Assembly: GCA_964615975.1 (NCBI GenBank)
Contig: CAZTTH010000008.1
Coordinates: 13,814-77,813 of the forward strand
DNA: 64,000 nucleotides
DNA from: an uncultured Lentisphaerales bacterium
Lineage (GTDB): Bacteria > Verrucomicrobiota > Lentisphaeria > JABSQK01 > JAJFLO01
Reading direction: 5' to 3'
Shown here: positions 11,899 to 64,000 of the stretch, one piece after another
Position numbering within the stretch: the stretch's first letter is position 1
Layout: every line of letters starts with the position of its first letter
Program-made: the position numbers and the translations under genes
The notes under the pieces: model-generated
What the model was told of the DNA's origin: nothing
The model's input: only the letters and a program-made list of their open reading frames with translations
Databases searched by the model: none

Positions 11899-14800
11899 GG
11901 GTTCACCCGGAATACCTTCATTACCTCGTCTCCAAGATGGTTGATTACTTTGATGGCGATGCGGCCGGACTTCGGCTTCTCGAATGGGCGGGAGGTGTCA
12001 CTGTTCAGAGTGGCCCAGGCGTCGGCGTTGATCTCGGCTTTGAGAGTGGTCTTGAGGGCGCTGTAGGGATCGTTGGCGCCAAGGAAATATGCATGGCGGA
12101 CAAAGAAGCTTTCTTCATTGTAATCGGTGTCGATGAACCAGCAGGCAATGCCATCGGTATTGCAGCTTTCTACTTCACCGGTTTGGGGTTTGAAGACATC
12201 CACTCCATTTACAGTGACCTGGAAATAGTGGCGAGTGGTCAGGGGAGAGTGGATAGCGATTTGATCAATGCGTTTAGCATTTTGTTGATCTTGGCACAAT
12301 TGTTCAATAAGTTTTCGCAGTCCTTCCTGGAAAGAAGTTCCAGCCTTTCGGACAAGATCAGAAAGGTTTCCAACTCCGCCAGCGATCCCCGCGCAATGCC
12401 AAGCGATTGTAGAAACTCCCCCGTGCTCCTGCGGGCCTGCCCTTCGGCGATGTTTGCCGGGACGGAGGTCACTGCCCGTCGCATTTGTGATGTAATCCCA
12501 TATCTCTCGGCGGCAGGAAAGCTGCGCGTAATCGCGTAGGTCTGCACCGCCAAGTCGATTGATTTCTGCCAGACTATTAACTCCCGATATGAGCTTATAG
12601 ATTTCATAAGGTGCTATTCTCCTTTCTGAACTATCCACTAACCACTCTTCACTTGCCACTTCAATATCAGGTTCCCCGAATATCACAAACAAGTTGCCTT
12701 TGCCGGTGTTCTTGAGATCTTCAGCCATGTGGAGGTCGGCGTTCATGCGGGCTTTGAGCACTGGGATGCGGCCCAGCTTCTTGAATTCGGTGGTGTGCGC
12801 TTCGTAGTTAAAAGCGCAGACGATCAAGACATCAAACCCGGCATCGCCGGCTTCGCGGGCGGCGGCGACGAGATCGGCGCGCTGGACGGTGCCGAACTCG
12901 GGGCCGATGAAGATTCCAGCACGGATTTCCGTGCCGGAATCAGTGGATAGTGAGGAGTGGTTAATGGCATATTTTTCTTGTTGATCACCCTTCACTAACC
13001 ACTCACCACTTGCTTCAAACCGCCCTTCGGCGCAGACCAATTCGCCCGGCCAGGGAACCAACGAGGTGAAAGTGATCCGATCCTCCTTGTGCGCCTGCTG
13101 CACCCCTGCGGTCTTGAGGTTTTCCAGAACCATCTGGGGGAATGACTGCTTTCCATATTCGACACCGCCTTCCAACATGGTGTCGATCAATTCGTCGTCC
13201 TCGTCGACCCCGAGCACACGATGAGGTGAAAGACTCTCCACGGTGAAGGGACCGGCGACGCGGACTGTCTTCTTGTCCTCATAGGGTTTGTCGTAGAGAT
13301 ATTCGACATCAGCCTTGGCGGAAATCGACGCATCAATTTCCTTTTGGCGGGCAATTCGTTTGTGCCACCAGTCGGAATGCAGCTTCAGAATGTGGGACAG
13401 ACATTCTTGTCTGTCTTTAGGGGGGAGTTTGGCGGTGGAAGAAGCAGACAGGAATGTCTGCTCCACACTGGCAGATTCGCGCGGAATTTCCCATTCTTCC
13501 CATTTCATATTAAGCGCGGTATTGAGCTCTGCTCGAAGAAATTCCAGCTCTGGTTGGAATTTCTCCCAGATAACATCGATCTCGGCGTTGTTGGCGATGG
13601 ACTTGAGCGTGATGTGTGGCACACGTTCATAGACGAAGCCGTGGCGGATGTTCCCCTGCACCGGTTGCGAACTTGGGGCGGTGCGAGTGACTTCGGCTTC
13701 CTTGAGCTGACCTTCAATGGAATCGACTAGTAGGTAAAAGGGATACCGTGCGCCCATGATGCGAGCACGGGCCAATGCCAGCGCCACGCGTGAGGTGTCG
13801 ATCGTGATCCAACGGCGCCCCCATTGCTCGGCGACGGTGGCGGTGGTACCAGAACCGCAGGTCGGGTCAAGTACGAGGTCACCGGGATCGGTGGCCAAGA
13901 GAAGGCATCGTTTTATTGCTTCTGTAGCAGTCTGAACGACAAAAATCTTTGGATCTGCACGGCTTTGAATGCCCCCGATATCATCCCAGACGTTTGAAAG
14001 TGTATGAACGGGAAAATCTTCAATGTAGCGAACGTAATTTAATATCTGCTTGCTCGGAGAAATACGATTTGCCAATTCGAGTCTGGCCATGCCATTGGGT
14101 GTTGTCTTCCAACTGCCTTGGTGTTCGCAGTTTCGTAGTGTCACTAACACTACTGGGTTTGCTTCTGACGTTGTCTTGTCGAGACGGAAAATTCGTGACG
14201 CGGGCGGGAAGGCATCAGGGAATTTTTCACTCGCTTGTTTTAGTGTAATTCTTGTTCCATCTGGTAGTTCGACTCCGTTGTATTTTGTGCCGCCATGTTC
14301 TCCTGGTCTCTTCTCGGCGTACAGATGCCGTGCTTTCGCATGGGTCTTATGCTTTGCGAACCAGAGAATGAAATCGCATTTGTTATTCACGAAGTCTTGA
14401 ACAAGACCTCCTGTCTTTACGAATGTGATTTGGCTGACACAATTCTCTTCTCCGAAGACCTCATCCATCACTGCCCGGACACGGTGAACATTTTCATCGC
14501 CGATCTGGACGAAGATGGAGCCGGAATCTGTTAACAAGTCACGGGCCACTGTCAACCGGTCCCGCAGGTAGGTAAGGTAGCTATGGATGCCTTCGCGCCA
14601 GGTATCGCGAAAGGCTTTAACTTGTTCGGGTTCACGTGTAATATGATCAACCTTGCCGTCCTTCACATCACGGCTGGTGGTGGACCACTGGAAATTGCTA
14701 TTGAACTTGATGCCATAAGGCGGATCGATATAGATGCACTGCACCTTGCCGCGCAACCCCTCGCGCTCGGCCAGGCTGGCCATGACCTGGAGGGAGTCGC

Positions 14801-15215
14801 CGAGGATCATGCGGTTGGACCAATTCTGATCGTGTTGATAGAACTCAGTCTTGTCCACGCCCTGAGGAATGCCATTAAAATCCGCGAATAAGTCTGGCTG
14901 CCACGATTCGGTGGAGTGATTAGTGGATAGTGAAGAGTGGCGCAGTAGATCGTCAATCAATACCTTGGGGTGAATTTTCTCCTGAATGTATAACGGCGGG
15001 GCATGGACAACGAGATCGCTCCAGTCCTGTTCATCCTTGCCGCGCCAAACGAGTTGGGGATCGAGATCGGTGTTGCGGGGATAACGCACCTGCTTGGGGT
15101 TCTGCTGCTCCTTCTCCAGCACCGACTGGTATTCGGCGGTGGGAATGTTCTTGCGCGTCGCGTCGTCGTGCTTGAGTGTTTCGACTGTCTTGGTTTTATT
15201 GTTTGCATTGGCCAT
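11895..15215 (-). CDS. mod: Type III-like N6-adenine DNA methyltransferase (Mod), long form (~1100 aa); ORF stays open across a nested four-helix-bundle gene
   Basis: Motif IV DPPYG precedes motif I DPTCGSGTT (beta-class order). The C-terminus ..GRIAIKVINHLGDEVMKVFRVNP matches the family. I prefer the ATG at 15215 (MANANNK) over the track's TTG at 15230. Confidence 0.7.
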   Translation of the reverse strand: MANANNKTKTVETLKHDDATRKNIPTAEYQSVLEKEQQNPKQVRYPRNTDLDPQLVWRGKDEQDWSDLVVHAPPLYIQEKIHPKVLIDDLLRHSSLSTNHSTESWQPDLFADFNGIPQGVDKTEFYQHDQNWSNRMILGDSLQVMASLAEREGLRGKVQCIYIDPPYGIKFNSNFQWSTTSRDVKDGKVDHITREPEQVKAFRDTWREGIHSYLTYLRDRLTVARDLLTDSGSIFVQIGDENVHRVRAVMDEVFGEENCVSQITFVKTGGLVQDFVNNKCDFILWFAKHKTHAKARHLYAEKRPGEHGGTKYNGVELPDGTRITLKQASEKFPDAFPPASRIFRLDKTTSEANPVVLVTLRNCEHQGSWKTTPNGMARLELANRISPSKQILNYVRYIEDFPVHTLSNVWDDIGGIQSRADPKIFVVQTATEAIKRCLLLATDPGDLVLDPTCGSGTTATVAEQWGRRWITIDTSRVALALARARIMGARYPFYLLVDSIEGQLKEAEVTRTAPSSQPVQGNIRHGFVYERVPHITLKSIANNAEIDVIWEKFQPELEFLRAELNTALNMKWEEWEIPRESASVEQTFLSASSTAKLPPKDRQECLSHILKLHSDWWHKRIARQKEIDASISAKADVEYLYDKPYEDKKTVRVAGPFTVESLSPHRVLGVDEDDELIDTMLEGGVEYGKQSFPQMVLENLKTAGVQQAHKEDRITFTSLVPWPGELVCAEGRFEASGEWLVKGDQQEKYAINHSSLSTDSGTEIRAGIFIGPEFGTVQRADLVAAAREAGDAGFDVLIVCAFNYEAHTTEFKKLGRIPVLKARMNADLHMAEDLKNTGKGNLFVIFGEPDIEVASEEWLVDSSERRIAPYEIYKLISGVNSLAEINRLGGADLRDYAQLSCRREIWDYITNATGSDLRPGKHRRRAGPQEHGGVSTIAWHCAGIAGGVGNLSDLVRKAGTSFQEGLRKLIEQLCQDQQNAKRIDQIAIHSPLTTRHYFQVTVNGVDVFKPQTGEVESCNTDGIACWFIDTDYNEESFFVRHAYFLGANDPYSALKTTLKAEINADAWATLNSDTSRPFEKPKSGRIAIKVINHLGDEVMKVFRVNP
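12239..12607 (-). CDS. Four-helix-bundle protein (TIGR02436 / '23S rRNA intervening-sequence protein' family), nested inside the mod ORF in a different frame
   Basis: ELIVWQKSIDLA..FP..ERYGITSQMRRAVTSVPANIAEGQARRSTGEFLQSLGIARGSLAELETFLILS.. is an unmistakable family signature. It has its own SD (aaaggag). Confidence 0.75.
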   Translation of the reverse strand: MKSISSYRELIVWQKSIDLAVQTYAITRSFPAAERYGITSQMRRAVTSVPANIAEGQARRSTGEFLQSLGIARGSLAELETFLILSERLELLSRKDCENLLNNCAKINKMLNALIKSLSTLP

Positions 15216-15376
15216 GTTATTAAATCCCAAAATCAGGTTGTTGTCTACATTTATTCGGCCCGCTAATCACGCAAAACACACGAATGTTCAGTTCTCAGTT
15301 AAGAATGAAGGCTGATTTGCTTGGATTGAATATTCGTGTCGTTCGTCTGATTCGTGGTTAAATTTGAACGGTGGTG

Positions 15377-15436
15377 AACGGAGGGCGGGTTTTCCAACCC
15401 GCCAAACAAGGCGGACAGGAATGTCCGCCCTCCGTT
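15377..15436 (-). promoter_or_regulatory. Structured element between the RHH gene and mod with mutually exclusive hairpins
   Basis: aacggagggcgg...ccgccctccgtt (12-bp inverted repeat) encloses the ggcgggtt-ttcc-aacccgcc and ggcggaca-ggaa-tgtccgcc stem-loops. On the mRNA strand the second loop is followed by TTGTTT. Confidence 0.35.
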
Positions 15437-15473
15437 ATCCTCAAAATCGATACCTGAGTTGTTACAATATATT

Positions 15474-15707
15474 TTATATTTTGCCATCGCGTTTCAATTC
15501 GATAATCATGTCCTCAAACGAAACTAATGGTTCATCCGCGCGCATATCGAAGGCGGCTAAATCCTCTGTATCCTCCGCCAGCGACAATATTACCGCTTCA
15601 TTAACGAGGTCGGACATCGATCTTGATGTATCAATGGACTTTTGCTGTAATGCTTTATGAATATCCGGTTTTAGGTAAATAGTGGAACGTTTTGATAATA
15701 CTGTCAT
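15474..15707 (-). CDS. Ribbon-helix-helix (CopG/antitoxin-like) DNA-binding protein, 77 aa
   Basis: TIYLKPDIHKALQQKSIDTSRSMSDLVNEAV is an RHH-like beta-alpha-alpha N-terminus. No adjacent toxin ORF. Confidence 0.45.
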   Translation of the reverse strand: MTVLSKRSTIYLKPDIHKALQQKSIDTSRSMSDLVNEAVILSLAEDTEDLAAFDMRADEPLVSFEDMIIELKRDGKI

Positions 15708-15777
15708 ATGATAACCTCCATGATTTTATTGATTGAACAATTATAACGTTACATTACCAATCGTGGAATGAAAAATT

Positions 15778-16350
15778 TCAAACTGCCAATCGGTCAGTGA
15801 CTACATCATCGATCATCTTGTTGAACTCGGCTTCAACCTTTTTAGTAAAATCCGCCTCGATCTGATAAACCATGCGTTCGCTCGCCCGGATTTCGCAGAC
15901 CTCTTCAAGCAGTTCCTCGAAGTATCGCCGGTCGAAACGAGTGCCGTGTTTAAAGCGGTCGGAATCGATAGCGAAACCTTTGAGGATGTAGTCCTTTAAC
16001 CGATCGGTAGCCCAGGTACGAAATTGGGTCGCTCGCACGCTTTTGACGCGATACCCAACAGCTATGATCGCTTCGAGGCTGTAAAGCTTCGTACGATACT
16101 GCTTGCCATCAGCGGCAGTTACCGAGGATTCCTCGGTAACTGCTGATTCGATTAGTTCTTGATCGGCGAAAATATTCTTTAAATGCAAGGAGATATTGTC
16201 GGTGGAACACTCATAAAGTTCGGCTATGAGTTTCTGGGTGAGCCAAACATTTTCGTTCTCGAAGCGAACTTCAACGCGAGCCCGCCCATCTTCACTTGCG
16301 AAGATGGTGATATTGTCGATGCGTATAGGTTGCGAATTTTTAGACATCAT
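15778..16350 (-). CDS. RhuM-family virulence-associated protein
   Basis: NISLHLKNIF..YSLEAIIAVGYRVKSVRATQFRTWAT block. Overlaps the fic stop by 1 nt. Confidence 0.6.
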   Translation of the reverse strand: MMSKNSQPIRIDNITIFASEDGRARVEVRFENENVWLTQKLIAELYECSTDNISLHLKNIFADQELIESAVTEESSVTAADGKQYRTKLYSLEAIIAVGYRVKSVRATQFRTWATDRLKDYILKGFAIDSDRFKHGTRFDRRYFEELLEEVCEIRASERMVYQIEADFTKKVEAEFNKMIDDVVTDRLAV

Positions 16351-21432: not shown

Positions 21433-22356
21433 CTATTTCAGCGGCGCTTCGATGCGTTCGACCGTTTCGACCTGAATCAGTGGTCGCGGCCAGCCTTTGA
21501 TCCAGCTTTCTTCGCCAGTGATTTCAACCTGTTTTCCCAGATGAACGGCCAGATCACCGTTGGGCATACTTAAATATGCCAGTGGATAATAGCGTTGATT
21601 GATGGCGATTGCCAGAGCGTATATCGAGCGTTGCTCACCCAGCTTCAACGTAATCAGCTCCCCCTGCCTGGTTACTGATCGCGGCGTTCCCACCGGAATC
21701 GTTTCCGCGGGAAGCGCCGCGGGCACCAAAGGATCAACGATCATGCCATCCCTTAGAGTCGCCGGCGCCACGGTTTGTTCTACCAATTGTTTGCTCAAAT
21801 CGTGCCCCTGTTCATCACGGGATTGGGATTTCCAGCTCTTGTCGCGCCGCATCGATTCCCGATCAACGGTTATGAAACTGGCGTTGACCCAGACAATCGT
21901 ATCTGCCGGCGGTTTTATATGCACCCAGCGATGGCCGACTCGATTGAGGATTTCAACGATATCATCCTTTGACAAGGTTAAATAAGCGGAAAACAATTCC
22001 CCCGGTCCGGCATATACAGGCGTGTGGTCATTAATGACCCGATTATCGGCGAGACGATCGGCGGCGATCCAGGTTTCAGTGTTGGTTGGCGCGGCGATGC
22101 CATACCAGTCATCGACAAGGCGTTTGATTTCCACCTCCGCTCCTTTTTCCAGCACACAGACGACTTCCGATTGAATACCTGCCTGGGCGCGCACATTCAA
22201 TTTATTGGAATTGACAATGCCCTTGAAGGGAAACGCGTAACGCGCCTCAGGATCAGCCGGCTCCGCACCGGAAACCAGCGCTACCATGCAGTAAAGTGAT
22301 AGGATGATGACCGCCAGCAGTGCCGGTTTGATGAGATTTTTTATCGCTCTAGACAT
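21433..22356 (-). CDS. Secreted SH3b-domain protein
   Basis: Signal-peptide-like N-terminus and two SH3b-like repeats (KLNVRAQAG...VVCVLEKGAEVEI). Confidence 0.5.
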   Translation of the reverse strand: MSRAIKNLIKPALLAVIILSLYCMVALVSGAEPADPEARYAFPFKGIVNSNKLNVRAQAGIQSEVVCVLEKGAEVEIKRLVDDWYGIAAPTNTETWIAADRLADNRVINDHTPVYAGPGELFSAYLTLSKDDIVEILNRVGHRWVHIKPPADTIVWVNASFITVDRESMRRDKSWKSQSRDEQGHDLSKQLVEQTVAPATLRDGMIVDPLVPAALPAETIPVGTPRSVTRQGELITLKLGEQRSIYALAIAINQRYYPLAYLSMPNGDLAVHLGKQVEITGEESWIKGWPRPLIQVETVERIEAPLK

Positions 22357-22370
22357 AACTACTCCCTAAT

Positions 22371-24143
22371 TTAATTAAGCACCGCCTTGATGCGGCGGAC
22401 CCCGCGGCTGGAACTTTCTTCCTTGAGAATTTTGAATTGACCCAGTTCCGCGGAATTTTGCACATGAGGACCCCCGCAAATTTCCATGCTGAAATCGCCG
22501 ATGGTATAGACACTGACCACCTCGCCATATTTTTCTTCAAACAATCCAATCGCGCCTTGTTTTTTGGCTTCGCTGACACTGGTCTCGCTCCGCGACACGG
22601 GTAAGCCGCGGCGGATTTGCTCATTCACGATCGTTTCCACCTGTTTGAGCTGTTGTTCATCCATCTTATCGGGATGGGAAAAATCGAAACGCAATCGATC
22701 GGCAGTGATGTTCGAACCTTTTTGGGCGACATGATCCCCCAATACCATTCGCAATGCCTTATGGAGAAGATGAGTGGCGGTATGCAGCCGTGTCGTCGCA
22801 TCGGAATGATCGGCCAGCCCCCCCTTGAATTTCTTTTCCGCCCCTTCCCGGGATAACGCCTGATGTTTTTTGAATTCTTCGTAAAATTCCGCTTCGGCCA
22901 CAGCATAACCCTTATCCCGCGCGATTTCTCGAACCAGCTCCAAGGGGAACCCATAAGTTTGATAAAGATCGAATGCCTGGATCCCAGAGATGGTTTTCTG
23001 ACTGGCGATGGCGTTGTTTGATTGTAATAACTTATTCAATTCATATAGTCCCTTGTCCAGGGTTTTCTTGAACTGCGCTTCCTCCGTCTCCAGGGTGTCA
23101 TAAATCTCGACGGCGCGGGATTCCAAATCCGGATGATCGGGGGTGTATTGGGTGATCACTGCTTCTGCCAGTGATCGGGTAAAGTGCCCATCGATGCCCA
23201 ATTGCCGCCCTTCGCGGATGGCACGGCGGATCAACCGCCGCAGCACATAACCCTGATCCACATTGGCGGGAACGATACCGGTGGTGATAATAAACACCGC
23301 GGCGCGCAGATGCTCGACCACGATTCTCCCACCCCTGCTCTGCCGGGGATTGTGAGCGGAAATAAACGATTGCAAGCGCTCGAACAAGGGGGTGAATAGT
23401 TCGGTATCGTAGACGCTTGATTTCCCTTGCAGAATCGCGGTTACCCGCTCGACTCCCATGCCGGTATCGACATTTTTCTGGCTCAGAGGAACATACAATC
23501 CATCCGGAGTCTTGTTGTACTCCATGAACACATCATTCCAAATCTCCACCCAGCGGGAATCATCGGGATCAAAGTTTTCTGGAGGAGAGCCGCCGCCTGT
23601 CCAATAAAACATTTCAGTATCCGGACCACATGGTCCGGTTTGTCCCGCCGGTCCCCACCAGTTGTCTTCCTTGCCCAGTCGGGCAAGGCGTGCTTCCGGG
23701 ATCCCGAGAGACCGCCAGCAGTCATAAGCGAATTGATCGAAAGCGGCGTCGTTGTCACCGGCAAAAACCGAGACCGCCATCCGCGCTGGCGGCAATCCGA
23801 GAAATTTTTCGGAGGTTAAAAATTCGTAACTGAAGGAAATAGCTTCTTTCTTGAAATAATCCCCCAGCGACCAGTTCCCCAACATTTCGAAATAGGTCAA
23901 ATGGGTTTCATCGCCAACGCTGTCGATATCGCCGGTACGAACGCATTTCTGGACATTAACTAGGCGATTGCCGGCAGGATGTTTCTGTCCCATGAGGTAA
24001 GGGACAAGCGGATGCATCCCGGCCGTGGTAAACAGACAGGTGGGATCGTTTTCCGGAACCAGGGAAGCACTCTTGATGGGGGCGTGATCGTGCTGGCGAA
24101 AAAATTCGATGTACTTCTTTTTTAATTCTGATGCGGTGATCAT
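22371..24143 (-). CDS. alaS: Alanine--tRNA ligase, short form (590 aa; catalytic plus editing region, no C-Ala tail)
   Basis: KCVRTGDID..FEMLGNWSLGDYFK, and the editing-domain HxxxH...CGGPHV motifs. Confidence 0.8.
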   Translation of the reverse strand: MITASELKKKYIEFFRQHDHAPIKSASLVPENDPTCLFTTAGMHPLVPYLMGQKHPAGNRLVNVQKCVRTGDIDSVGDETHLTYFEMLGNWSLGDYFKKEAISFSYEFLTSEKFLGLPPARMAVSVFAGDNDAAFDQFAYDCWRSLGIPEARLARLGKEDNWWGPAGQTGPCGPDTEMFYWTGGGSPPENFDPDDSRWVEIWNDVFMEYNKTPDGLYVPLSQKNVDTGMGVERVTAILQGKSSVYDTELFTPLFERLQSFISAHNPRQSRGGRIVVEHLRAAVFIITTGIVPANVDQGYVLRRLIRRAIREGRQLGIDGHFTRSLAEAVITQYTPDHPDLESRAVEIYDTLETEEAQFKKTLDKGLYELNKLLQSNNAIASQKTISGIQAFDLYQTYGFPLELVREIARDKGYAVAEAEFYEEFKKHQALSREGAEKKFKGGLADHSDATTRLHTATHLLHKALRMVLGDHVAQKGSNITADRLRFDFSHPDKMDEQQLKQVETIVNEQIRRGLPVSRSETSVSEAKKQGAIGLFEEKYGEVVSVYTIGDFSMEICGGPHVQNSAELGQFKILKEESSSRGVRRIKAVLN

Positions 24144-58882: not shown

Positions 58883-59899
58883 TTAAAACTGCTGCAGAAA
58901 GCGGACATCGTTTTCATACAACAGCCGGATATCCGGAATCTTGTATCGAATCATTGCCAATCGTTCGACTCCCATGCCGAATGCAAATCCAGTAATATGA
59001 TCGGGATCGTAACCGACCGAGGTAAAAACTGCGGGATCAACCATCCCGGCGCCAGAGATTTCCAACCAGCCGCTTTGCTTGCAGATTGAGCACCCTTCTC
59101 CGCGACAATTGATGCAACTAAAGTCATACTCCAAACTCGGTTCGGTAAATGGGAAAAAATGAGGCCGAAATCTTACTTGGATGTCGGGACCAAACATTTC
59201 ATGGGCAAATCGCAGGAGTGTTCCTTTTAATTCAGCCATTGATACCTGCCGGTTGACATATAACCCTTCGATTTGATGAAAATTCATGCTGTGGGTCGCG
59301 TCGGGAGTGTCACGTCGGTAACAACGACCGGTTGCGATAATGCGCACCGGCGGTTGTTGCTTCTCCATTACCCGGATCTGTACCGGGGAGGTGTGAGTGC
59401 GGAGGAGTCGCCCGTCGGCAAAATAAAAGGTATCCTGCAAATCTCTCGAGGGATGATCGGAAGGGGTGTTGAGGGCATCAAAATTGTGATATTCGTCTTC
59501 GATGTCAGGACCATCGGCCACAATAAATCCCATACGGCGAAAAATGTCGACCGCGTCGTCAATCACATGATTGATGGGATGTTTATATCCAGTTTTACGC
59601 CGGCGTCCCGGAAGAGTCACATCAATAGTTCGGTCAGCTGCTGAAGTATTTTTGATCACAACCAGTCTTCGATCAATCGCTTCCTGGAGTGTTTTCTTGA
59701 CCCCATTGGCTTTTTTACCGGTTTCCGGCCGTTCTTCGGGTGACAATATCCCCAGGCTTTTCATCATCTGTGAAATAGCGCCATTTCTGCCTAAGTATAA
59801 AGCTTTAATGGCTTCGAGTTCCGGTATCGTTTCGACCTGGTCAATTGCTGTCAGGCCATTTTGCAACGCAGAGTCGAGATGTGTCATCAAATCGTTCAT
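58883..59899 (-). CDS. pheS: Phenylalanine--tRNA ligase alpha subunit
   Basis: Class II aaRS motifs (FRPHFFPFTEPS; GFAFGMGVERLAM). Confidence 0.85.
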   Translation of the reverse strand: MNDLMTHLDSALQNGLTAIDQVETIPELEAIKALYLGRNGAISQMMKSLGILSPEERPETGKKANGVKKTLQEAIDRRLVVIKNTSAADRTIDVTLPGRRRKTGYKHPINHVIDDAVDIFRRMGFIVADGPDIEDEYHNFDALNTPSDHPSRDLQDTFYFADGRLLRTHTSPVQIRVMEKQQPPVRIIATGRCYRRDTPDATHSMNFHQIEGLYVNRQVSMAELKGTLLRFAHEMFGPDIQVRFRPHFFPFTEPSLEYDFSCINCRGEGCSICKQSGWLEISGAGMVDPAVFTSVGYDPDHITGFAFGMGVERLAMIRYKIPDIRLLYENDVRFLQQF

Positions 59900-60599
59900 G
59901 GGGTGACGTTTGTTTCCAATTAATTATATTAGTATCGATTCAAGTACATTTGGTTTTCACGATATTATTCGCTCTCGTACGATTATCTGATTATATACTA
60001 ATCGTTATCAGGTTTTCTTAATTTTATTGATCTGGGATGGATGTCTTTTGTAAGCCCGAAGGGCTGAGATGTAGCCCAGGGTAACACCCTTGGGTAGGTT
60101 AAATCAATGAAAATTTAGCTGTGAAGGAGTGTAATAAATGTTGGAAATTCCGAAAACCTGATTCATACAAGTTTATAACTATCCTCACAATCTTGATCGA
60201 GATTTTTTTTATGTTAGATCAGTCGAATCCTTTTTGGCAACCTCCCCCTTGTCTCTTCATCAGATGTGGATCCATGTCCCGGTCATACTTTTGAAGATAC
60301 AAACTTGACGAGAATAAAATGCACCGTTCCCCGGCAGTCGTGGGCGGGCGGAGAATTCACCCCTATTACTTGATCATTACAATAGCGGAGTTCAAGTTTT
60401 ACTCAGATACTCATGATGATTGATTAATGTGCTTCTCAAGTTTTAGGAGATTGAGGGATCTAATCGACACTCCTCTTTAATGAAATCTTGGTCAAGATTG
60501 GCATTCACATTTGGTGCGGGCAAGGAATACCGAAACAGCAAACCCTTCCAGGGAAATCAGCCTCGAGGTTTGAGTGAGTGATAATAATTGACAGCACTA

Positions 60600-60632: not shown

Positions 60633-62219
60633 TCATTGGGGTACAAATTGTGGTATGGTTGGGGGAAAAGACAGACTTCCGCCAAGTAGGGGTAGAATCA
60701 GTTGCCGCAAGGTGATATCCGTGGTGGTGGCCGCGATTTCCTGGAGTAATATTGTCCCCTTATCAGGTTGAAAACGGAGTAAATGGGTGAGGACTTGCTG
60801 GCGCAATAACTGATCCTTGTCAGCCAGGGTTTGGGTGGTGATTGTTTCCCAATTGTCCAGCTGGCGACGAATGATTTCTCCCACTGCGTCTGAACGAATC
60901 GATTGTTGATCGTCGAGCATTAATTCTTCCAGCAGCAATGCGGCATCCCCATTGTTGAGTCGCCGGGAGAGCAGAATAGCGGTTTTGCGGTTGTCACCAA
61001 AACGACTTTTAGCCAGTGACATAAGTTGGGCGGTGGTTGGTTGTGGAATGCGGGGTAATAATTGTTCTGCAGCCTCGCGCACCGACCTGTCATTGTCGCA
61101 TGCCAAACTAAATAGCAGCTCAACATCTGATTCGAAACGATAGTGTAATCCGTATGTTTTCAATGCCATGGTGCGATAGCCGGGATTCGGATGTTTCATG
61201 AGTTCCTGCAAAGCAGTCCTGCCGGAATCTCCCAATACTGGCATTGATTGAATAATGGATTCCGCGAGTGTGGGATCGATTCGCGGATCATCAAGTGCTT
61301 GTCGCAATGTTTTATCGTGAGCTGGTTGACCGTGAAGAAGTAATTTTAAGCGTGCGGAATGCGCAATTTCAAAATCGCTGTCTTTGATCATTTCTTCTAG
61401 GATTTTATCTGCGCGTTTGTCATTGAATTGACCTAATATTTGGGTAAGGCGTTTACGGATGGAAATATCAGGATCCTGAGTCAGTCTGGCAATGGTCTCG
61501 AAGAGCTCCGGCATCGACAATGTTATTGATGCCGCCTGCAACGCCAACATGCGGACATCGCGATCGGCATCCAGTAATAATTTTTTTAAGTTCTCGGCGG
61601 GTAAAATTGTTTGGAAATAATGGTAATAGGTTATCATGTTTTTTCGCACGGTGACATCGCTATCCGCAAAGGCTTTTACCAGTGCGACTTTCAATTGTTC
61701 GTCAAACTCCTGTCCCGGCGTGATAATAATACCCCAACTCCGGAAGCGAAAAATTTCCGGAATATAAGATGAAATAATGCGTCGGATATAAACGTCTTCA
61801 TCGGCGATCATCTCCAGCATCGTTTGGGCGATGGTGGCGGGAATAGCTTTTTTTTCGGTAAGTGATACCAGGGCTGAACGACGAATTAGGGAAGCTGGAT
61901 CTCGCAATGATTTCTGAATTCCCAGCATAGCATTCGGTTGATTATATTTGCCCAATATCAACACCGCACGTTGACGGACTTCCACCTGTGTGGAATTCAA
62001 ATCGGCAAGGCATTTGGCAATGGTTTCCTCTTCCGTTTCTACTCCAGATATGAAAGGTTGGTTTTGGCAGTATCCTGATTGCATAATCAGCACAAATGCC
62101 CCCAGAATGATGACAGAATTGAAATACGGGAAACTAACCCCCTGAAAAACCCAAGTTTTTGTCAATGCCTGAAACATGGTAATTTCTGCTACTCTTTTTC
62201 GTCCTCCTATCCCTATCAT
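60633..62219 (-). CDS. HEAT/ARM-repeat protein with N-terminal signal-like segment
   Basis: Multiple ..DxxVRxxAxxxLG.. repeats. Confidence 0.55.
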   Translation of the reverse strand: MIGIGGRKRVAEITMFQALTKTWVFQGVSFPYFNSVIILGAFVLIMQSGYCQNQPFISGVETEEETIAKCLADLNSTQVEVRQRAVLILGKYNQPNAMLGIQKSLRDPASLIRRSALVSLTEKKAIPATIAQTMLEMIADEDVYIRRIISSYIPEIFRFRSWGIIITPGQEFDEQLKVALVKAFADSDVTVRKNMITYYHYFQTILPAENLKKLLLDADRDVRMLALQAASITLSMPELFETIARLTQDPDISIRKRLTQILGQFNDKRADKILEEMIKDSDFEIAHSARLKLLLHGQPAHDKTLRQALDDPRIDPTLAESIIQSMPVLGDSGRTALQELMKHPNPGYRTMALKTYGLHYRFESDVELLFSLACDNDRSVREAAEQLLPRIPQPTTAQLMSLAKSRFGDNRKTAILLSRRLNNGDAALLLEELMLDDQQSIRSDAVGEIIRRQLDNWETITTQTLADKDQLLRQQVLTHLLRFQPDKGTILLQEIAATTTDITLRQLILPLLGGSLSFPPTIPQFVPQ

Positions 62220-62731
62220 TTTCGTTTACCTTTCTTTCCTTGAGTGCTTACTCATCGGATCGGATGCAAGTAACTCTTTGCCGTAAAAGCAATTATCCGG
62301 CATATCGCATTAAGTCATTTTGGTCTCAAGACCAAAGCGTAATCATTACAGACTGCTGAAGGGGGATGACACATTTTTTTTCACTCATAGAATTTTAATT
62401 CACCAATCAATTAACTGCCTGGAAGCCCTTCTCGGCTTTTCCCGCTGACGTAAACCGATACGAATGTGTGCTTTCTGAGACCTACCCTGATTGGTTATAC
62501 CCTCAATAATGATTTATGTTGCAATTCCCACTTCCAATATTGGGAAGGGAATCATCTCTCAGTAATATCTCTTCAGGGAGAACAGTATCGACCGCGTATA
62601 ACACCACAGAGAGGTCCTGAGCCTGACATTACATGTTTAACGGCCATTATTTGAAAGATTGGTGAACGGTTGTGCAACGGAGTGTGGATATTCGCAGAGA
62701 ACCGCATTGATCAAAATCCCAGCTTGGATCT

Positions 62732-63832
62732 TTACAATTTACCAATCCGTTTTAAAACGCGAAGTATGTCGTCACCGCTGTTGCCGTGTGAGGCCGCGAC
62801 GTCGCGAGCTTCCATGCCAAGGTCTACTTCTAATTTAGGCAAAGTCACATATTGGTCGACTGCTTTTTTTACTCGGGTTCGTTTATGATGACCGGAAATT
62901 TGATTGAAATCATCGACTAATTCGAGCGGTTTACGTGAATATAATACCGACACGGTAATCAAGGGTTTCTTTATTTGTGGATTGTGGATTACACTGTAAA
63001 TCGGCGACACTCCATCCGTGGCAAAAAAATCAATAATATCATAAAACTTTGAGGTTAATTCGGGATCAGGCAATTCCAATAGGAACAGCGCTTCAATTGC
63101 TCCTTCTGGCGCCAACAACAATGGATTATGATGATTTTGATATTGGGTTCCAAACGACTTATTGGGATCAAATACAAACTGACAAAAGTGATTAAAATAT
63201 GGCTTGCTTTTGTACAGCGAAAAATCTTCGTGATCAATATTGCCATCCAGATTGGCAAGCTTAGCGTTTTTATCCGGAATAATGAGAAATTGCCGCAAGG
63301 AATCGATTACCATTTCATTATATGTTTTTTCAGCCAATCTTTCTGTGAACTTTACCCGGTTCGAGAATAATACCATATTTCCCGTATTTCCAGTATCGAT
63401 GGCTGCGGAAACCGGACCTTGTAAAAATATCAAGGTATTATCAACATATTCAGATGCTTCCAATTCTGGATATGGAAGAACAAACACAAACATGGTTTTG
63501 TTCGCTAGGGGTATGGTTTCATTCCCACTCAATCTTTCAAGTATTTGCGAGCAGATCCCATTGCCGGTGCCACCGCCTGTAGAACTAAAAACGATGTTGC
63601 CTCGTATAATTTCAAGAAGTTTATCGCTGATGGAATGGTATGCCTCTCGACCAATCTGGGGTTCTTTCCTGGCGCCCTTGAATTGATCCTTATATGAATG
63701 GATGACTGCCCGTATTTTTTCCTGTGCGGCCACCTTGTCCAGTTCCACCTCAGAAATATTCACAATTATCGCCTCACCATTATCCAATAATGAAGCCAAC
63801 TTGCTGCCTGCTCCGCCGATGCCAATACTCAT
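62732..63832 (-). CDS. Divergent tubulin/FtsZ-superfamily GTPase (366 aa), not canonical FtsZ
   Basis: N-terminal IGIGGAGSKLA (like IGVGGGGGNA) and tubulin signature VFSSTGGGTGNG (GGGTGxG). No FtsZ C-terminal tail. Confidence 0.55.
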   Translation of the reverse strand: MSIGIGGAGSKLASLLDNGEAIIVNISEVELDKVAAQEKIRAVIHSYKDQFKGARKEPQIGREAYHSISDKLLEIIRGNIVFSSTGGGTGNGICSQILERLSGNETIPLANKTMFVFVLPYPELEASEYVDNTLIFLQGPVSAAIDTGNTGNMVLFSNRVKFTERLAEKTYNEMVIDSLRQFLIIPDKNAKLANLDGNIDHEDFSLYKSKPYFNHFCQFVFDPNKSFGTQYQNHHNPLLLAPEGAIEALFLLELPDPELTSKFYDIIDFFATDGVSPIYSVIHNPQIKKPLITVSVLYSRKPLELVDDFNQISGHHKRTRVKKAVDQYVTLPKLEVDLGMEARDVAASHGNSGDDILRVLKRIGKL

Positions 63833-63835
63833 GTT

Positions 63836-63997
63836 TTAGCCCTCCAGAAAAAGAGATGATTTGGTGGTGAATGATCGTTGTTTTATTAATATTTCCAATG
63901 CTTTTGCGCCTTCCTTGGTGATATAAAGATTGCGCCGATTTTGCTCCAATAGAATGGCAATAAAACACAGCAGTGAAAGCGATTCGATATATGTCAT
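63836..63997 (-). CDS. Small ORF (53 aa from the ATG at 63997) ending 4 nt upstream of the tubulin-like gene; it may instead be the 3' end of a longer gene that starts beyond the window edge
   Basis: Translation is MTYIESLSLLCFIAILLEQNRRNLYITKEGAKALEILIKQRSFTTKSSLFLEG*. The frame is still open at the window edge. Confidence 0.3.
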   Translation of the reverse strand: MTYIESLSLLCFIAILLEQNRRNLYITKEGAKALEILIKQRSFTTKSSLFLEG

Positions 63998-64000
63998 TGC

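Follow-up and report, generated by a model that had tools for sequence, protein, structure and literature searches.

A chromosomal cassette in Lentisphaeria with the layout of TubZRC partition systems: a candidate tubulin-type DNA-positioning module

The 64,000-nt stretch of an uncultured Lentisphaerales bacterium analysed here (hereafter the window; G000:C8:13814-77813, contig CAZTTH010000008.1 of an assembly of 3.84 Mb in 128 contigs, 92% complete) ends in a small cassette. It is composed of a gene for a divergent tubulin-like GTPase (Z), a gene for a winged-helix protein directly upstream of it (R) and, past the window end, an array of pentamer repeats upstream of R. We consider the cassette, with a probability of roughly 0.55, to be a chromosomal DNA-positioning module of the TubZRC type (type III), possibly for the origin region. 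A TubZ/TubR/tubC architecture is suggested because the partner gene, the ranking of folds and the upstream repeat array agree. Since membership of Z in TubZ is unproven at the sequence level and the cassette was not found on plasmids or phages, it is described here as a type III-like variant rather than as a TubZ member. Taken together, the data support that a TubZRC-type module was moved onto, and became fixed in, the Lentisphaeria chromosome. This layout was hidden from a reading of the window, because the 5′ half of R and the repeats lie past the window end.

The Z gene (P0001; 62732..63832, minus strand) encodes 366 aa and begins with an ATG that has a GGAGGG ribosome-binding site 8 nt ahead of it. 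A first-pass annotation, made from the window alone, had noted a glycine-rich loop (IGIGGAGSKLA) and a tubulin signature (STGGGTGNG) in the product, which were located at residues 3-13 and 84-92, and had proposed a divergent GTPase of the tubulin/FtsZ superfamily. This placement was borne out by the presence of the T1 and T4 loops, by the Pfam family Tubulin (PF00091), which matched at 33.9 bits compared to a gathering cut-off of 33 (E = 4.9e-8), and by a confidently modelled full FtsZ/tubulin fold. In an alignment of 28 homologues, the T1 loop GxGGxG (G4-G9), the T4 loop GGGTGxG (86-92), a T5-like PYxxxE (P120, E125), N158 and the sequence DGxIDxEDF (D196-F204) at the H7/H8 junction were invariant. 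The last of these would, from its place in the model, correspond to the T7 catalytic loop, the site of the acidic T7 residues of FtsZ and tubulin. Homologues of Z were 361-388 aa long, nearly all of them 364-368 aa, and shared 52-66% of their residues with Z; across the scored genomes and loci, identities ranged from 46 to 66%. Both Z and R were annotated as "hypothetical" in every database record with a source name.

Judged by sequence, the Z family is isolated within the tubulin/FtsZ superfamily. At E ≤ 10, Pfam gave only Tubulin and a weak match to a domain of unknown function (DUF), and the signatures FtsZ_C, Tubulin_2, Tubulin_C and CetZ_C were all missing. A phmmer search of 1.84 billion cluster representatives returned 32 proteins, all of them from the Z family itself or fragments of it, and no TubZ. 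A single-sequence search of the Protein Data Bank (PDB) gave weak N-terminal FtsZ matches only, and the PHROG family of PhuZ matched at E = 0.056. Marginal partial matches to tubulins were limited to the T4 region (BtubB, E = 0.015; alpha-tubulin, E of about 0.01-0.07). The missing Tubulin_C and the single tubulin-like gene per cassette set Z apart from BtubA/B and from tubulins of the eukaryotic type.

On the level of structure the relationship was clearer. The AlphaFold2 (AF2) model of Z, built on the 28 homologues, had a predicted local distance difference test (pLDDT) score of 86.9 and showed a complete two-domain FtsZ/tubulin fold (Foldseek E = 1.7e-17), with the N-terminal nucleotide-binding domain, the core helix H7 and the C-terminal activation domain all present. 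As this fold was modelled with confidence, the GGGTGNG match is not coincidental. In the fold comparison TubZ was closest, followed by S. aureus FtsZ at no more than 24.8 and CetZ at 24.6, and the long C-terminal helix of Z (302-327) was aligned by TubZ alone, up to model residue 324-329. The helix leads into a short, variable linker of low model confidence (about 328-337; it carries a 21-aa insert in one homologue) and then into a strongly conserved tail, (D/E)(I/V)LxxL(K/R)R(I/L)GK(L/I), in which L, R and K are invariant. Thus, Z combines the tubulin fold with the extended C-terminal helix and flexible tail that mark TubZ-type proteins. The hydrophobic moment of the tail (0.90-0.93) was the maximum of the protein, with values of 0.65 or less elsewhere. 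The first-pass statement that Z lacks the C-terminal linker and tail of FtsZ was right in that the FtsZ_C signature is missing, but helix 302-327, a short linker and a conserved tail peptide are present.

R is partly contained in the window as an open reading frame (ORF) that leaves its edge, as noted previously: the last 54 codons (63836..64000, minus strand) are open at the 5′ end. On the contig segment L003 (C8:74000-92000) the gene is whole (L003 3650..3988, minus strand, extending to window-equivalent 64174) and encodes a winged-helix protein of 109-112 aa; the full ORF has 112 aa, and an internal GTG that would give 109 aa has the better spacing to a ribosome-binding site. Its stop lies 3 nt ahead of the start codon of Z. 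A Pfam search with R gave no match. The AF2 model (pLDDT 94.6) showed the topology H-H-H-H-beta-beta-H, that is, a winged helix, and the top Foldseek match was TubR of the B. megaterium plasmid pBM400, with a template-modelling (TM) score of 0.81 by target and a root-mean-square deviation of 2.1 Å. When the R family profile was compared to PDB sequences, TubR (4asn_A) was matched nearly end to end (3-92 vs 5-91) at E = 0.026. A small winged-helix gene directly upstream of the GTPase gene, as expected for tubR, is thus present.

The association of the two genes was without exception in the material compared. R was directly upstream of Z in 84/84 loci from other genomes, with a 4-nt overlap between the R stop and the Z start in 45 of them and no more than 4 nt between the two in the remaining 39. 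A conserved SxFLE motif ends R in 80 of 84 sequences. In a census of one genome per genus (36,145 genera; 57 carriers of the Z family), R was found within 1 kb of Z in 51/51 carrier genera of the top band and 0 times at random places, and the reverse census also gave 51/51 genera with Z no more than 1 kb from R. R was single-copy per genome. A word-indexed search with R gave 3 proteins owing to an index limit, and the R family was taken from the loci instead.

Reading the operon beyond position 64000 yielded, besides the complete R gene, an array of repeats. The region upstream of R contains the pentamer TAGTN, or ACTAN as its complement, in runs that often meet head to head at ACTATAGT and are often arranged in two blocks; in the window's own genome the array TAGTtaACTATAGTtTAGTaTAGT...TAGTaTAGTaTAGT was located at L003 4096-4150 (window-equivalent 64282-64336), outside the window and 108-162 bp ahead of the R start. 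Sites of the TAGTNTAGT type occurred at 3.18 per kb within 500 bp upstream of R and at 0.031 per kb elsewhere in the loci (800 kb), an enrichment of about 100-fold, and at least one site was present in 66/84 loci. The pentamers are strictly phased: same-strand TAGT distances of 5, 10, 15, 20, 25 and 30 bp were counted 123, 86, 52, 35, 36 and 31 times, respectively, compared to 0-4 times at every other distance. The spacer base N was A in 52 cases, G in 49, T in 21 and C in 1. The array upstream of R was the sole cluster of the TAGTN motif in the 3.84-Mb assembly, and in a closed 3.08-Mb chromosome the triple unit was found once only, 217 bp upstream of R. Three sites at 100-320 bp ahead of the R gene were found in the most divergent carriers. 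A tubC is recognized by iterated repeats that precede tubR and are often divided into separate blocks. The same arrangement was found here, and the array is the predicted site of R.

Two side observations concern this region. Genome-wide, TAGTNTAGT was 4- to 9-fold rarer than the reversed pattern in five genomes (28 vs 197 in G002), which may reflect general TAG avoidance only, the control pattern not being matched in composition. Furthermore, a gene for a 145-aa pyrophosphohydrolase of the PRA-PH/MazG-like type (L003 4322..4759, plus strand) is divergent from R across the repeat-bearing intergenic region. The same family was found upstream of the cassette in the close relative L005, and this gene and the cassette may share a regulatory region.

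Within the class Lentisphaeria, Z was present once in 52 of 151 genomes. Its occurrence was sharply divided by family: 16 families had it in almost every member sampled, and the counts were 20/21 in f5, 6/6 in f7, 6/6 in f12 and 4/4 in f9, as opposed to 0/54 in f6, 0/27 in f8 and 0/9 in f19. The cassette is almost confined to Lentisphaeria, single-copy and chromosomal. It was located on chromosomal contigs of up to 8.8 Mb, between housekeeping genes that differed between lineages, and searches of 50,697 phage records, 72,556 plasmids and IMG/VR yielded no relative; carriage by a plasmid or prophage, typical of TubZRC, was thus not observed. The nearest relatives of the window genome were labelled Lentisphaeria. 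Z was rare in the class (1/101 genomes) and the family (3/41) of a metagenome-assembled genome labelled Pontiella, and the Z sequences labelled Kiritimatiellia and Tichowtungia fell together in a single clade within Lentisphaeria, as would be expected from one transfer or from mislabelled bins. About three Myxococcota_A genera (c__UBA9042 and another class) contained both Z and R at high score; lateral transfer and bin contamination are both possible. Identical or near-identical cassettes on contigs labelled Bacteroidaceae, Anaerovoracaceae, Lentisphaeraceae and "bacterium" (L041, L073, L074 and L076) most likely represent mis-binned contigs, not transfer.

This distribution bears on the question of whether the cassette could derive from the partition module of a plasmid or prophage that integrated long ago, now a relic or domesticated, and either kept by inertia or serving an element that is still mobile. 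All characterized TubZRC systems are carried by plasmids or prophages (PMC6009700), the language-model neighbours of Z were mostly viral tubulin-like clusters, some of them with TubZ_C_3 or TubZ-like_C, and the patchy occurrence outside Lentisphaeria, with the nested clade and the Myxococcota_A carriers, fits occasional transfer. We nevertheless regard a relic as quite improbable in view of the single copy per genome, the many residues invariant across at least 16 families, the negative searches of the phage, plasmid and IMG/VR collections, and contexts in which no integrase or phage genes were seen among the identified genes (Pfam was applied to few neighbour clusters).

The position of the cassette on the chromosome points in the direction of the presumed origin. 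In four genomes from four families it was located about 80 kb or less from the minus-to-plus switch in GC skew. The cumulative skew minimum of G133 (3.08 Mb, f12) lies at 1.56-1.63 Mb and the cassette at 1.576 Mb; in G002 (1.95 Mb, f1) the minimum at 1.23 Mb coincides with the best DnaA-box-like cluster, and the cassette is at 1.309 Mb. For Oligosphaera ethanolica (G025; 5.73 Mb, f5) the strongly negative skew ends at about 2.14-2.165 Mb with the cassette at 2.097 Mb, and in G012 (f7) the sign changes at 2.71-2.73 Mb with the cassette at 2.7295 Mb. By chance, a locus would lie within 80 kb of the switch with a probability of about 3-8% in any one of the three closed chromosomes. On the 105-kb contig of the window, a local skew minimum was found about 52 kb from the cassette. 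The skew arms of G025 are unequal, about 2.1 Mb vs 3.4 Mb.

The dnaA gene was 13-45% of the replicon away from the cassette. A conclusion from this distance that the cassette is not origin-proximal was dropped, as dnaA itself lies off the skew switches: it was found at 0.613 Mb (G133:C1), 0.232 Mb (G002:C1) and 0.608 Mb (G025:C1), compared to switches at about 1.6, 1.23 and 2.15 Mb. Being far from both switches, dnaA is a poor marker of the origin in Lentisphaeria.

ParB (TIGR00180) scored above the cut-off in 7/151 genomes of the class and was not found in the 92% complete genome of the window, and the Pfam family ParB_N was unmatched in this genome, in G133 and in G012. In G002, ParB_N was present on a secondary contig only, and in G025 in one ORF at 4.34 Mb, far from the skew switch. 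Lentisphaeria thus appears to be largely without ParABS. On the secondary contig of G002 (G002:C2), two identical ParB-like matches (22111-22638 and 59449-59976) are 37 kb apart and a DnaA-like AAA match was also found, so that this contig looks like a plasmid assembled as a concatemer. A complementary distribution of ParB and the cassette was considered and rejected, ParB being equally rare in families without the cassette.

Z is not the division protein of its host. An ftsZ gene (401 aa, with Tubulin and FtsZ_C domains; G000:C14, L002 1510..2715) adjoins ftsA (G000:C14, L002 226..1494) on another contig, and its product showed no significant pairwise similarity to Z (E = 0.085), so that the earlier distinction between Z and the division FtsZ was confirmed once this gene had been sought elsewhere in the genome. 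This FtsZ is itself divergent, with 140 bits for the FtsZ equivalog TIGR00065 (cut-off 295) and a degenerate T4 loop, GRGTGSG in place of GGGTGTG. A second, specialized paralogue of cell-division FtsZ would agree with the FtsZ-like fold of Z and its layout of core, linker and a conserved C-terminal peptide like the C-terminal tail (CTT) of FtsZ. This explanation is very unlikely: TIGR00065 gave 20.3 bits for Z compared to a cut-off of 295.2, FtsZ_C is missing, Z lies outside the division and cell wall (dcw)/ftsA context in which the other FtsZ of the genome is found, and it is obligately paired with a DNA-binding protein.

The first-pass annotation had compared Z to the FtsZ-like families (FtsZl) and proposed a role in membrane remodelling. 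FtsZl proteins coexist with division FtsZ, and FtsZl1 is sometimes encoded beside protein kinases (PMC2875224); Z is likewise a divergent member of the superfamily beside a division FtsZ, sometimes with an adjacent kinase gene. The resemblance ends there. FtsZl1 has about 1000 aa, a coiled coil, and operons with vWA, GTPase and OmpA genes, and FtsZl2 is proteobacterial, encoded by a stand-alone gene and has a C-terminal region of about 300 aa of mixed alpha/beta structure (PMC2875224); the group carries Pfam Tubulin_2 (PMC9871819). Z has 366 aa and no coiled coil, did not match Tubulin_2, possesses the complete T6-H7-T7 and C-terminal domain missing from FtsZl1, and has no vWA, GTPase or OmpA neighbours. 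In contrast to FtsZl2, its carriers belong to Verrucomicrobiota, it has R as an obligate neighbour and its whole length is only 366 aa. A member or analogue of FtsZl1/FtsZl2 is therefore the least probable of the explanations weighed here, and the proposed kinship and membrane remodelling were not upheld.

A number of observations weigh against a chromosomal TubZRC-type module. We infer its function, as well as the binding of R to DNA, the polymerization of Z, the contact between Z and R and a role in segregation, from sequence, models and position. Z did not match the C-terminal families of TubZ in Pfam (TubZ_C_3, TubZ-like_C) at E ≤ 10, and the Z family profile showed no preference for TubZ (FtsZ, 1.6e-6; TubZ/RepX, 4.8e-6). 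The E-value of 0.026 between R and TubR is marginal, and with an exhaustive aligner the structural match of R to TubR was tied with generic winged helices of the MarR/PadR type. As to position, skew was calculated from sampled 20-kb pieces that cover the chromosomes in part, with the usual polarity assumed and for four related genomes, and it was noisy and tracked gene strand. The contig of G012 ends 79 kb past the cassette, and in G025 a zone of near-zero skew of about 600 kb (about 2.165-2.735 Mb) lies between the strongly negative and the positive arm. In the three closed chromosomes, dnaA is far from both skew switches, and scans for DnaA boxes with the E. coli consensus were uninformative apart from a weak cluster in G002, where four boxes with one mismatch each coincide with the skew minimum. 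Families f6 (0/54), f8 (0/27) and f19 (0/9) lack both the cassette and ParB; the cassette is thus no universal replacement of ParABS and may be dispensable. Finally, the amphipathic basic helix at the C-terminus of Z could be a membrane anchor instead of an R-binding tail. When Z was modelled together with two R chains, the predicted complex scored 0.59 and one control 0.40, which is evidence for neither side.

The C-terminal helix leads to the main rival explanation, in which Z has a membrane-anchored cytoskeletal role and R is merely an autorepressor. We consider this rather unlikely, yet it is kept alive by the amphipathic tail and the frequent kinase neighbour. The last 13 residues of Z are its most amphipathic ones (0.90-0.93), with a basic face and invariant L, R and K, and we take them to resemble membrane-targeting helices of the MinD/FtsA type. 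A Ser/Thr kinase gene follows Z in 32 of about 80 loci and a response-regulator/histidine-kinase gene in another, and families without the cassette are also without ParB, so that segregation does not need the cassette. On the other hand, a plain autorepressor would hardly need arrays of up to eight or more phased pentamers, which often form two blocks, the best specific match of R is a centromere-binding protein, TubR, and the locus stays by the skew switch though its flanks differ, which would be unexpected for a generic cytoskeletal gene.

With regard to the surroundings of the cassette, Z was correctly described as the last gene of a small operon, with R directly upstream and a noncoding spacer downstream. 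This spacer, previously given as 510 bp, comprises 512 bp (62220..62731) and separates Z from a gene for a HEAT-repeat protein (60633..62219, minus strand). It contained no Rfam family at E ≤ 1 and no terminator-like site, and its predicted RNA folding was no better than that of shuffled sequences (z = 0.26). The gene downstream of Z varied between lineages: a HEAT protein in close relatives, a Ser/Thr kinase in 32 loci, and others elsewhere. The kinases (340-530 aa, with a Pkinase domain) are encoded on the same strand as Z, for example at L072:7190-8362, L012:7190-8218 and L031:7268-8662 (plus strand), 15-240 bp past Z. Loci with a following kinase mostly belonged to one half of the Z family tree, and none was found in the window's own genome; the single response-regulator/histidine-kinase gene was also located downstream of Z. 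No PADLOC model of a defence system matched. Past the window end, a 771-aa ORF (L003 5483..7798, plus strand) has an extreme content of Lys, Glu, Ala and Gln and is coiled-coil-like, with an N-terminal hydrophobic segment, an internal masked (N) stretch and no Pfam match. It is followed by a two-partner-secretion (TPS) pair (L003 7738..11847 and 12701..15859, plus strand), of which the ShlB/FhaC-type transporter is unusually long (1369 aa) and carries POTRA domains solely in the C-terminal third, and the exoprotein has 1052 aa with a TPS domain and DUF5649 repeats. Among the public sequencing runs listed as matches no RNA run was found, and the sole strong match was a sand metagenome, which may be the source.

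As a working model for a TubZRC-type module, R would bind the phased TAGTN array just upstream of its own gene and form a nucleoprotein complex, which probably also represses the operon. Z would polymerize with GTP, and hydrolysis activated by assembly is predicted because the T7-type acidic residues are conserved. Through its C-terminal extension Z would engage the complex of R and DNA, and the dynamics of the filaments could then move or hold the locus. The cargo would most likely be the origin-proximal region of the chromosome, because the array is single and near the GC-skew origin in a class mostly without ParB. A further-reaching version, which we put forward as a possibility and hold to be somewhat doubtful, is that Lentisphaeria segregate or position their origin region by a tubulin machine, with an R-bound pentamer "centromere" near oriC and treadmilling filaments, ParABS having been lost.

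Bacterial chromosomes are handled by ParABS, SMC and related systems, and to our knowledge the only reported cases of DNA segregation by proteins of the tubulin family come from plasmids and phages (TubZ, PhuZ). The cassette is a concrete candidate for tubulin-driven chromosome organization in bacteria because it is conserved, single-copy and chromosomal, with a unique array near the GC-skew origin in genomes in which ParB was mostly not found. If this is true, no earlier chromosomal DNA-segregation system of the tubulin family would be known from bacteria, and the cassette would parallel the eukaryotic spindle in function. A cultured carrier, Oligosphaera ethanolica DSM 24202, opens the question to direct testing. 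The Z family also adds a compact and isolated branch to the tubulin/FtsZ superfamily, and the predicted DNA site, TAGTN in a 5-bp phase, could serve as an orthogonal partition or labelling tool. A literature search of partial coverage found no description of the Z/R family, and the family was unmentioned in a 2023 survey of FtsZ/tubulin families and a 2025 paper on cell division in the Planctomycetes-Verrucomicrobia-Chlamydiae (PVC) bacteria.

Compared to known systems, Z differs from FtsZ and CetZ by the missing FtsZ_C and CetZ_C, by its location outside the division cluster and by its DNA-binding partner. With FtsZl1 and FtsZl2 it shares being a divergent superfamily member that coexists with FtsZ, and it differs from them in size, domain architecture, Pfam family, operon partners and taxonomic range. 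The cassette resembles ParABS in that a DNA-binding adaptor and an array of sites are found near the presumed origin, beside the gene of an NTPase. It has, however, a tubulin-fold GTPase in place of a Walker ATPase, a winged helix in place of ParB, and one site cluster without the CTP-binding ParB fold, and ParB itself was below the cut-off in 144/151 genomes of the class.

The comparison to TubZRC was based on the plasmids pBtoxis, pXO1, pBM400 and pBsph and the Clostridium botulinum phage c-st. Unlike these systems, the cassette is chromosomal, single-copy and inherited across a class of Gram-negative PVC bacteria, and Z shows no membership of TubZ at the sequence level. Its repeat is a 5-bp TAGTN in long phased runs with switches of orientation, whereas the repeats of characterized tubC sites are presumably longer (about 12 bp in pBtoxis). 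The tail of Z forms a basic amphipathic helix in which L, R and K do not vary, and the cassette contains no TubY-like third gene but is often followed by a Ser/Thr kinase gene. The centromere of type III systems is described as "always upstream tubR" and as made up of several blocks of direct repeats (PMC6009700). The cassette shows the same order, from repeat array to small winged-helix gene to the gene of the tubulin-like GTPase, with tightly coupled genes and repeats upstream of R that are often in two blocks. R is nearest to TubR both by profile and by Foldseek, and the fold of Z is nearest to that of TubZ, with which it shares the long C-terminal helix and the flexible tail after it.

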